This document shows, one piece after another, positions 58,699-60,305 of a stretch of DNA of 64,000 bases (position 1 is its first letter; every line of letters begins with the position of its first letter). Source of the DNA: Betaproteobacteria bacterium. Its GTDB lineage: Bacteria; Pseudomonadota; Gammaproteobacteria; Burkholderiales; JAHFQX01. The stretch is from NCBI GenBank assembly GCA_023259135.1, contig JAHFQX010000009.1, positions 2,519 through 66,518 on the forward strand. The letters run 5' to 3'. The notes below the pieces were generated by a model, which did not search any database, was not told where the DNA came from, and worked only from the letters and a program-made list of their open reading frames with translations. A program made the translations under genes and the position numbers.

Positions 58699-59118
58699 TT
58701 AGGCCAGCTTGAAGCGGGGCAGGGTGATGTCGTCGGTGATTTTCTGGCAAACCAACCGCACCGGCATGTCGAAGACGACTTTTTCGGCATCCCCCTCGAT
58801 CAGGGAGCTGATCATGCGGGGACCTTCCTCCAACTCCACCAGCAGCACGGCATAGGGCGTGTCTTTCTTGAAGGCCGGTCCCGGGGCCCGGTAGACCACG
58901 CTGAAGGAATGCACCTTGCCGCGTCCCGAGGCAGGGCGATGTTCCAGGCGTTCCGAATTGCATTTGTGGCACATGCTTTTCTGGTAATACTGGACATGGC
59001 CGCAGTCCAGGCAGTGCTGGAGCAACAACTGACCTTTCTTTAGGCCATCCCAAAAGGCGAAGGTATCTCCGTCCGGGGTTGGCAGAGGTTTTTTCAGGGC
59101 TTCTTCCATGGTGATCAT
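58699..59118 (-). CDS. DUF35-type Zn-ribbon + OB-fold protein
   Basis: CLDCGHVQYYQKSMCHKC zinc ribbon followed by OB-fold (GKVHSFSVVY...). ATG 59118 overlaps the upstream stop (ATGA). Confidence 0.82.
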   Translation of the reverse strand: MITMEEALKKPLPTPDGDTFAFWDGLKKGQLLLQHCLDCGHVQYYQKSMCHKCNSERLEHRPASGRGKVHSFSVVYRAPGPAFKKDTPYAVLLVELEEGPRMISSLIEGDAEKVVFDMPVRLVCQKITDDITLPRFKLA

Positions 59119-60305
59119 AGCGCGGCCTCCGTGCCGAGAATGGTGGTGGCGGCGGTAGCGAATCCCGCCCCGAGATTGTGGACCAGGCCCAGGTTGGCAT
59201 CGGCGACTTGCCGATCGCCGCATTCGCCCCGCAATTGGCGGATGACCTCCCAGAAGTGCAGCAGGGCGCCGGGAATCCCCGGATGGGCATAGGACAAGAG
59301 ACCGCCGTGGGTGTTGCAGGGAATCGTGCCGCCGTAGGTCATCTGGCGGTCTTCCACGAAACGGCCGCCTTCGCCCTTGGGACAGAATCCCAAATCCTCC
59401 AGAACCATGATCACGGTGCCGGTGAAACAGTCGTAGACCCCGGCCACGTCCATATCCTTCGGCCCATAACCCGCCATTTCGTAGGCTTTCTTGCTGGACT
59501 GCACGGCGCCGGTGGTGGTGACCGAGGGCATAAGGAAAATGTGCTCATGGGTATAGCACTCGCCACCGCCGAGGATGTAGACGGGTTTCTTGATGCCCAG
59601 GGATTTGGCCCGCTCCGCCGAGGTGATGAGGAAAGCCGCGCCGCCGTCGGAGATCAGCGAGCAGTCCAGCTTGTGGTAGGGAGAGGTGACCAGGCCGGAA
59701 TTGAGCACGTCGTCCACCGTGATGGGCTTGGTCATCTGGGCCCCCGGGGTGCGCAGGGCGTGCTCCCGCTGGATCACGGCCACTTGGGCCAACTGTTCCG
59801 GAGTGGTGCCGTAGTCCTTCATGTGCCGGTGGGCGGTCATGGCGAAGGTGTTGGACACGGGGATGCCGAAGGGCATCTCGTACTGCTGATCCCGACTCTC
59901 GGTCATGGAGCGCAGCGCTAGGTCGGGGGTCAGCCCGGTGAGCAGGCTGTCGCCCCCCAATACCAGCACGGTTTCCGCCAGGCCGCCGGCGACCGCCGCG
60001 GCGGCGATATTGAACATGGTCGCGGCGGTGGCTCCCGATACCTGCAGGGTGTTGGAGAACGTGGGCTGGATGCCGAAGTATTCGCTGAAGGCGACGCTAA
60101 ACCGGTGAAACGGCGCGGCGAAGGCATGGCCGGCCAATACCCCGTCCACTTGATCCTTGCCGATTCCGGCGTCGGCAAGGGCTTTCTTGGCGGCATCGGC
60201 GGCGAGCCATAACGGGCTTTTGCCTGGCACCTGGCCCACCGGGGACAGGCCGACGCCGATGACGGCGGCTTTGCCCCGGATGGTGGCCTTGGTCTTGCTG
60301 GACAT
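59115..60305 (-). CDS. Thiolase-fold protein lacking the nucleophilic Cys (SCP-x/Ltp-like partner of DUF35)
   Basis: By-eye alignment to the thiolase at 1946-3193 places LQVSGATAAT opposite VENACASAST (Cys to Gly). The C-terminal CNTHGGLLSYAHPG is retained. Confidence 0.8.
   Translation of the reverse strand: MSSKTKATIRGKAAVIGVGLSPVGQVPGKSPLWLAADAAKKALADAGIGKDQVDGVLAGHAFAAPFHRFSVAFSEYFGIQPTFSNTLQVSGATAATMFNIAAAAVAGGLAETVLVLGGDSLLTGLTPDLALRSMTESRDQQYEMPFGIPVSNTFAMTAHRHMKDYGTTPEQLAQVAVIQREHALRTPGAQMTKPITVDDVLNSGLVTSPYHKLDCSLISDGGAAFLITSAERAKSLGIKKPVYILGGGECYTHEHIFLMPSVTTTGAVQSSKKAYEMAGYGPKDMDVAGVYDCFTGTVIMVLEDLGFCPKGEGGRFVEDRQMTYGGTIPCNTHGGLLSYAHPGIPGALLHFWEVIRQLRGECGDRQVADANLGLVHNLGAGFATAATTILGTEAAL

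Follow-up and report, generated by a model that had tools for sequence, protein, structure and literature searches.

As far as we know, the characterised thiolase-fold aldolases number just two, each of them a steroid enzyme. CtSal of Comamonas testosteroni is a bile-acid C5 side-chain aldolase that works with the DUF35 domain of CtShy (9MYR; PMC12329534), and TcLtp2 of Thermomonospora curvata is a steroid C3 side-chain aldolase that works with the DUF35 domain of ChsH2 (6OK1). An essential catalytic base is found in both, Tyr302 in CtSal and Tyr294 in TcLtp2 (PMC12329534). In CtSal, Gly89 occupies the former nucleophile site, Tyr302 is the proposed base and Cys304 the proposed acid, and the Y302F and C304A/S/H variants are inactive; roles have also been assigned to Gln161, Gln347 and Gln352 (PMC12329534). 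In TcLtp2, the base Tyr294 opens a Y-D-H-F motif and a second Tyr (344) serves as the acid (PMC12329534). Here we describe a gene pair on the reverse strand of a 64,000-nucleotide stretch of DNA from a Betaproteobacteria bacterium (GenBank assembly GCA_023259135.1, contig JAHFQX010000009.1, positions 2,519 to 66,518), hereafter called the window. One gene encodes a thiolase-fold protein that lacks the nucleophilic cysteine and the other a free-standing DUF35 protein. We consider it probable that the two form a bicistronic operon for a heteromeric acyl-coenzyme A (acyl-CoA) aldol-lyase of the Sal/Ltp2 kind.

In HMMER pairwise alignments, Gly91 of the thiolase-fold protein stands opposite the nucleophilic Cys of the Pyrococcus thiolase 7yvy (...eaaCasgg..., E 1.7e-49) and of the archaeal acetoacetyl-CoA thiolase 6esq (...eaaCasgs..., E 6.9e-44). 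When MAFFT was used to align the protein with the genome's own three Cys-type paralogs, one of which is the thiolase encoded at 1946-3193 of the window, Gly91 again fell at the Cys position; it also aligns with Gly89 of CtSal. An earlier note on this DNA had placed a Gly at the acyl-accepting Cys by eye, and both programs confirm that alignment. A catalytic Cys correctly placed elsewhere was also looked for, and none was found. The Cys residues of the protein are at positions 215, 250, 293, 308, 330 and 362, with none in residues 1-214. Because the first Cys is residue 215, the N-terminal half offers no alternative nucleophile. The nucleophilic Cys of thiolases proper (EC 2.3.1.9, 2.3.1.16 and 2.3.1.176) is thus missing here.

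The H-D-C-F motif of thiolases reads Y291-D-C293-F in this protein, with the first His replaced by Tyr. The YDCF motif aligns with YDCY of CtSal (Tyr302/Cys304), with YDHF of TcLtp2 and with HDCF of 6esq. His341 aligns with the His of 7yvy (ghp) and of 6esq (gha), and with Gln352 of CtSal and Tyr344 of TcLtp2. Two thiolase features are therefore kept, the acid/base Cys (Cys293) and the second His (His341). Since Tyr291 and Cys293 match Tyr302 and Cys304 of CtSal, the protein has the Sal-type dyad together with the Gly. The Ltp2 combination of YDHF with a second catalytic Tyr at 344 is not found, as the motif is YDCF and the position of Tyr344 is taken by His341.

The S-G-A-T-A-A-T motif that holds Gly91, the Y-D-C-F motif and His341 are invariant across 121 sequences, which comprise the window protein and its 120 best database relatives (79-89% identical, from Alpha- and Betaproteobacteria). 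In a wider set of 65 relatives (34-89% identity), conservation reaches at least 90% for Tyr291 and Gly91 and for no Cys. The Tyr of the Y-D-x-F/Y motif is present in 61 of these 65 distant relatives, and Cys215 and Cys308 occur commonly among relatives. The orthogroup is discrete. In an exhaustive search of 50%-identity representatives, the next full-length relative beyond the orthogroup's own fragments was 52% identical. We then aligned 146 sequences, namely 130 full-length representatives, seven orthogroup members (the window protein among them) and nine paralogs from its own genome. The nucleophile site is Gly in 130 of the 146 and Cys in only four, three of which are the added paralogs. 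FastTree split the Cys-type sequences from 141 Cys-less ones with a support of 99, and placed the window protein in a nine-member clade that uniformly has Gly, YDCF and His at the three sites (support 95). The genome's own Cys-type paralogs, three in number, branch apart from it. The tree puts the protein within the Cys-less clade and not inside a Cys-dependent thiolase clade. The proposal of the earlier note, an aldol-lyase-type enzyme rather than a thiolase, is supported by this placement, by Gly91, by the invariant Tyr291 and by the sequence kinship to CtSal and TcLtp2 described below.

Pfam assigns Thiolase_C_1 (3.3e-56) and, with a weak match, Thiolase_N (6e-08) to the thiolase-fold protein. 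All NCBIfam thiolase models stay under their cut-offs for it, the best being PRK06158 with 363 bits vs 421. Its sequence matches in the PDB are led by 4u4e (2.4e-81), followed by the aldolases CtSal (9myr, 3.8e-59) and TcLtp2 (6ok1, 2.5e-50), with Cys-type thiolases only later. The AlphaFold2 model has a mean predicted local distance difference test (pLDDT) value of 95.4. By fold, Foldseek ordered the solved structures as 4u4e, 9myr (CtSal), the Trypanosoma brucei protein TbSLP (5ab6) and the archaeal thiolase (6et9/6esq), with 6ok1 at rank 20; the template-modelling (TM) scores of 0.84-0.90 against 4u4e, 9myr, 5ab6 and 6ok1 identify an SCP2-type thiolase fold. Placement relative to CtSal, TcLtp2 and TbSLP was read from the HMMER and Foldseek ranks and from the motif signatures of the tree's unnamed representatives. 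Public records name the proteins of the orthogroup "thiolase" or "acetyl-CoA acetyltransferase", an annotation that, judged by the residues described above, is very probably wrong.

Similarity to CtSal extends from the SCP2-type thiolase fold (TM 0.84) to the Gly at the nucleophile site, the Tyr and Cys of the Y-D-C-aromatic motif and the DUF35 partner, and the DUF35 of CtShy (9myr_B) is the best solved match of the DUF35 protein described here (6.8e-18). However, the two enzymes are only 32% identical, and the window protein is without about 11 residues of the loop that shapes the large steroid pocket of CtSal. The DUF35 that partners CtSal is the Cys3His tail of a MaoC hydratase (Shy), whereas ours is a separate Cys4 protein, and the steroid/bile-acid gene context of CtSal has no recognised counterpart around the pair. 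With TcLtp2 the protein shares the fold, the Gly-type nucleophile loop, a catalytic Tyr that opens Y-D-x-F and a Cys4 DUF35 partner. It differs from TcLtp2 in having YDCF and His341 instead of YDHF and the acid Tyr344, and its DUF35 partner is free-standing instead of fused to a hydratase subunit. The earlier note had named the mycobacterial Ltp2 as the precedent for a Cys-less enzyme with a DUF35 partner. The active site found here, with Y-D-C, is nearer to those of CtSal and TbSLP, which make the better precedent.

The best solved match, by sequence (39% identity) as well as by fold, is 4U4E, a putative thiolase of Sphaerobacter thermophilus from structural genomics. Like the window protein, it has a Gly at the nucleophile site and keeps the His (...sytHPG...); its motif is YDSF, so that the equivalent of Cys293 is missing. 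TbSLP, the SCP2-thiolase-like protein of Trypanosoma brucei (5AB4-5AB7), has the same YDCF, no nucleophilic Cys and a closely similar structure (TM 0.88-0.89). It is eukaryotic and works without a DUF35 partner, whereas the present protein is bacterial and has a predicted one. TbSLP has been proposed as an aldolase by the authors of the CtSal study (PMC12329534). Cys-type thiolases with a zinc-ribbon/OB partner, for example the archaeal 6esq, have the same fold and the same kind of partner. They keep the nucleophilic Cys and work via an acyl-enzyme, unlike the protein described here, and no HMG-CoA (3-hydroxy-3-methylglutaryl-CoA) synthase or PhlA-type gene adjoins our pair. Taken together, the sequence comparisons support a place for the protein with the Sal/Ltp2 thiolase-fold aldolases, as a member of neither subtype.

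The partnership with the DUF35 protein is conserved. Of 85 loci in other genomes, 84 have a DUF35 gene 3' of the thiolase-like gene, the remaining one being on a contig that breaks off at the stop codon, and a 4-nt overlap was estimated in 71 of the 84 orthologous pairs. The DUF35 protein matches Pfam zf-ChsH2 (4e-10) and OB_ChsH2_C (1.2e-19), which together made up the former DUF35, and its solved relatives include, after the DUF35 of CtShy, the archaeal DUF35 protein (6esq_E, 5e-17) and the DUF35 domain of ChsH2 (6ok1_B, 1.6e-16). Its zinc ribbon reads C36-x2-C39-x10-C50-x2-C53, with the four Cys invariant in 22 sequences. This spacing is of the canonical C4 type (PMC12329534). Sequence and Pfam are thus in agreement with the earlier description of a downstream zinc ribbon plus OB gene that overlaps by ATGA. 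For the predicted complex of the two proteins, the median score of three runs was 0.90, and the best of three controls scored 0.00. Because complexes of like kind have already been solved (9myr, 6ok1, 6esq, 7pxp and 5m3k), this result speaks for likeness to them and not for binding by this particular copy. Of 80 solved complexes, 58 attain the 0.90 mark, as do two of 110 mismatched pairs. The runs share at least 95% of their contacts, and the pLDDT of the partner is at least 91. The modelled interface is formed by enzyme residues 131-163, 204-209 and 255-262 together with an invariant stretch of the DUF35 protein (70-83). On these in silico grounds, the DUF35 protein is a predicted partner subunit of the thiolase-fold enzyme.

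By analogy with CtSal and TcLtp2, we infer a catalytic dimer in which each thiolase-fold subunit carries one DUF35 protein. The DUF35 protein would sit over the loop covering the active site and help to form the substrate cleft. Because Gly91 replaces the nucleophilic Cys, no acyl-enzyme would form and thiolysis of a 3-ketoacyl-CoA would be excluded. In the proposed reaction, Tyr291 would deprotonate the hydroxyl group on C-beta of a 3-hydroxyacyl-CoA, the bond between C-alpha and C-beta would be cleaved with release of an aldehyde or ketone, and Cys293 would protonate the remaining acyl-CoA enolate, so that acetyl-CoA or a different short acyl-CoA is formed. His341 would probably assist, either by polarising the thioester or by tuning Cys293.

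The gene context in other genomes bears on the possible substrate. Neighbours were counted within about 7 kb of the ortholog at 80 other-genome loci. An AMP-forming ligase is found near the ortholog at 66 of these loci and lies directly upstream in 45; an acyl-CoA dehydrogenase is present at 57, an enoyl-CoA hydratase at 49 and a nitroreductase-family protein at 33. Genes for a biotin carboxylase and carboxyltransferase lie near the pair at 33 of 38 alphaproteobacterial loci. The NCBIfam names of the neighbours are only generic. One neighbour is a 655-aa ligase like acetyl-CoA synthetase (ACS), under all NCBIfam cut-offs, and others are a second ligase, just under the cut-off of the cyclohexanecarboxylate-CoA ligase model, a PRK07327 hydratase and a BadH-like dehydrogenase. 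In the closest relative (89%, a Rhodocyclaceae metagenome-assembled genome), a hydratase, the pair and the ACS-like ligase lie together. Several of these partners have orthologs in the genome studied here (53-82% identity), spread over contigs other than that of the pair. C76 has the ACS-like ligase, C44 the nitroreductase-like gene, C21 the carboxylase genes and C22 the dehydrogenase. No steroid-type genes were recognised at the window locus or among the common neighbour families of the 80 other genomes. Inspection of the window's open reading frames and their Pfam matches showed no MaoC gene and no hydratase adjacent to the pair. A literature search on the module of ligase, nitroreductase, thiolase-like and DUF35 genes found no paper.

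The context elsewhere fits catabolism of a CoA ester by ligase, dehydrogenase/hydratase and aldolase in turn, for an acid whose beta-carbon cannot be oxidised to the keto stage. Judged by the neighbours in other genomes, the substrate is probably a CoA-activated, small, branched or alicyclic carboxylic acid and not a steroid. A bolder proposal, which we put forward only tentatively and regard as doubtful, is that the orthogroup with Gly, YDCF and His and with a free-standing DUF35 protein represents the first non-steroid branch of the thiolase-fold aldolases. Its members would act on small tertiary or branched 3-hydroxyacyl-CoA esters for which oxidation to the 3-keto stage is barred, cleaving them to acetyl-CoA and a ketone or aldehyde, and would act alongside the ACS-like ligase and the nitroreductase-like flavoprotein, which are about 70-80% conserved with the orthogroup across Alpha- and Betaproteobacteria.

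HMG-CoA lyase likewise carries out a retro-aldol-type cleavage of a tertiary 3-hydroxyacyl-CoA. Because genes like those of methylcrotonyl-CoA carboxylase adjoin the pair in Alphaproteobacteria, we considered the pair as a substitute for this lyase. The candidate was rejected. A lyase of the HMG-CoA lyase (HMGL) family scores above cut-off in this genome (NF004283, 270.8 bits with a cut-off of 246, C21:11972-12928, beside the orthologous carboxylase cluster) and in five of five other carriers, and since all searched carriers have such a lyase, the pair is not its genome-level replacement. This result is compatible with a role of the pair on a different 3-hydroxy-3-alkyl substrate. The cluster at C21:3802-12928 consists of two carboxyltransferase genes and a biotin carboxylase gene, followed by genes for a tripartite ATP-independent periplasmic (TRAP) transporter binding protein, a family III CoA-transferase and the HMG-CoA-lyase-family protein. 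Its carboxylase genes are 69-78% identical to those that adjoin the pair in Bradyrhizobium.

Among Bradyrhizobium, Afipia, Xanthobacteraceae and Comamonadaceae of soil and freshwater the orthogroup is common, with about 80% identity across the two proteobacterial classes. At the 80 other-genome loci, alphaproteobacterial and betaproteobacterial orthologs are 77-89% identical, and in one comparison, of this genome with a Bradyrhizobium, identities of 69-82% were found for the ACS-like ligase, nitroreductase-like protein, dehydrogenase and carboxylase subunits that travel with the pair. The order to which the window belongs was sampled evenly with 150 genomes, from a collection that has no other member of its genus or family; this sample gave no ortholog, the best match being 48% identical. 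The identity across classes and the absence of an ortholog from these 150 genomes suggest that the module has spread horizontally.

Several observations weigh against an aldol-lyase of the Sal/Ltp2 kind. Gln161, Gln347 and Gln352 of CtSal are replaced by Ser151, Leu336 and His341, respectively. The closest solved structure, 4U4E, is uncharacterised, and a literature search found no paper that mentions it. Within 7 kb of the pair in the window, where nadB, rpoE/rseA, YgfX-like, TauD-family and TctC-family genes lie, no acyl-CoA metabolism gene was recognised. In the wider Cys-less clade the Tyr is near-universal, but the position of Cys293 varies among Cys, Ala, Ser and Pro. Because it is often Ala, Ser or Pro, the Sal mechanism cannot hold for the whole clade; as judged from the alignment, the dyad is a trait of sub-clades and not of the entire Cys-less group, and the chemistry of the clade may be more varied than one precedent suggests. 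Finally, TbSLP, which has YDCF, has as its sole recorded activity a very weak malonyl-CoA decarboxylase, 0.005 per second (PMC12329534).

The most probable of the alternatives, which we nonetheless regard as unlikely, is that the pair encodes another acyl-CoA enolate enzyme, for example a malonyl-type (3-carboxy) acyl-CoA decarboxylase. Once CO2 is lost, Cys293 and His341 would then stabilise the enolate and supply its proton, as happens in members of the thiolase superfamily that have no nucleophile. The acid/base Cys and the His of thiolases are both kept, genes of a biotin-dependent acyl-CoA carboxylase adjoin the pair in those 33 of 38 alphaproteobacterial loci, and the decarboxylase activity of TbSLP, very slow as it is, is measurable (PMC12329534). 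Yet that rate is just 0.005 per second, and CtSal has no malonyl-CoA decarboxylase activity (PMC12329534). For the invariant Tyr291 there is a defined role in the aldolases but none in a decarboxylation. Moreover, a decarboxylase beside the carboxylase would reverse the product of the latter unless other steps lie between them.

Less probable again is aldol chemistry in the synthetic direction, whereby an acyl-CoA enolate, for example of acetyl-CoA, would be joined to an aldehyde or ketone to give a 3-hydroxyacyl-CoA. Aldol reactions are reversible, the evidence from the active site is blind to direction, and in the window the pair lies outside any catabolic operon. However, both characterised relatives act catabolically, and the ligases, dehydrogenases and hydratases near the orthologs in other genomes are typical of breakdown. 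That the protein is a catalytically inert or regulatory scaffold, or an acyl-CoA-binding protein with a thiolase fold, we hold to be improbable. Loss of the nucleophile would also be expected of a dead enzyme, but Tyr291, Cys293 and His341 are invariant in the best 120 relatives across two proteobacterial classes, an active-site constraint that is unexpected of a scaffold, and the genome keeps seven Cys-less paralogs, all seven with the Gly and six with the Tyr of Y-D-x-F. A true thiolase with a differently placed nucleophilic Cys is very improbable, for although the protein has six Cys, two of them (Cys215 and Cys308) common in relatives, residues 1-214, which hold the nucleophile loop, are Cys-free, the His of HDCF is replaced by Tyr as in aldolases, the aldolase CtSal has no Cys at the position of Cys215, and the protein falls outside the Cys-type clade.

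The layout of the gene pair, with the predicted catalytic and partner subunits of the proposed aldol-lyase, is given in Table 1. The ATG of the DUF35 gene at 59118 overlaps the TGA of the thiolase-fold gene (GCT ATGA TC, read from the sequence). A 174-aa version of the DUF35 reading frame (58699-59223) is an in-frame extension of the 139-aa gene; because 21 of 21 orthologous DUF35 proteins begin at the same MI..., we take it as a mere upstream extension. About 100 nt before the start codon of the thiolase-fold gene there is a promoter-like site. The 5' leader of about 95 nt contains an inverted repeat; its RNA fold is no better than those of shuffled sequences (z 0.23), and a search of this leader against Rfam gave no family match. 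The same-strand upstream gene is nadB (NCBIfam L-aspartate oxidase, 951 bits), and a convergent TauD-family gene follows downstream. Because it is flanked by nadB, by a divergent YgfX/CptA-family gene and by the convergent TauD-family gene, the pair looks like a self-contained two-gene operon.

Table 1. Features of the thiolase-fold/DUF35 gene pair, in positions of the window.
Feature	Position	Strand	Basis and remarks
Cys-less SCP2-type thiolase-fold protein gene, 396 aa	59115..60305	-	Open reading frame and translation; predicted catalytic subunit
Free-standing DUF35 protein gene, 139 aa, predicted partner subunit	58699..59118	-	Pfam, PDB matches
ATGA stop/start overlap of the thiolase-fold and DUF35 genes	59115..59118	-	Sequence reading
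Gly91 codon, thiolase nucleophile position	60033..60035	-	Alignments
Tyr291-Asp292-Cys293-Phe294 codons (YDCF), predicted catalytic base and acid	59424..59435	-	Alignments
His341 codon, retained thiolase "GHP"-type histidine	59283..59285	-	Alignments
DUF35 zinc ribbon C36, C39, C50 and C53 codons	58960..59013	-	Translation
Promoter-like TTGAAC-17 nt-TATAAT	60405..60433	-	Consensus scan, 10/12 matches; pattern match only
Shine-Dalgarno-like AGGAGG, 7 nt 5' of the ATG at 60305	60313..60318	-	Sequence reading

The genes around the pair have features of their own. The YgfX/CptA-family gene at 60445-60921 (+) (Pfam Cpta_toxin 2.4e-14) has nadB on one side and the pair, from which it diverges, on the other, and leaves no space for an sdhE/cptB-like partner. 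Three paralogs of the TauD/TfdA dioxygenase family, at 52208-53143, 53288-54172 and 57419-58420 (+), occur within 6 kb and are interleaved with a class II aldolase gene, a ketopantoate-reductase-like gene and a gene for a TctC-family binding protein. Between the stop codon of the DUF35 gene and the TauD-family gene, a 194-bp element (58439-58632) is bounded by perfect 22-nt terminal inverted repeats. Partial copies of it (87-93% identity, 88-132 nt) are found on at least four other contigs, together with many shorter pieces, and it looks like a dispersed intergenic repeat of the miniature inverted-repeat transposable element (MITE) or repetitive extragenic palindromic (REP) type.

The genome, of 2.58 Mb and 99% complete, contains eight DUF35 matches and ten SCP2-type thiolase-fold genes, a large share for its size; the contigs concerned are C63, C76, C46, C44, C36 and C29. 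Seven of the ten SCP2-type genes are Cys-less, and a DUF35 partner adjoins every one of the seven. All seven have the Gly, whereas the motif is YDCF in two, YDSF in three, YDAF in one and AGNF in one. The Cys-type SCP2-like thiolase gene at 1946-3193 (+) of the window has the nucleophilic Cys, with H-D-A-T at the position of H-D-C-F. No DUF35 gene adjoins it; tandem genes of short-chain dehydrogenases/reductases precede it and an acyl-CoA ligase gene (3197-4735, +) follows.

The window in itself adds no new principle, being one more, unusually isolated copy of the pair. If the proposal of a non-steroid branch is true, branched, terpenoid or alicyclic acids would be handled by a widespread route that has so far gone undescribed. 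Once its substrate is defined, a non-steroid member would broaden the chemistry of the thiolase-fold aldolase family and correct many annotations, and it could supply a biocatalyst that forms or cleaves C-C bonds in small CoA esters.

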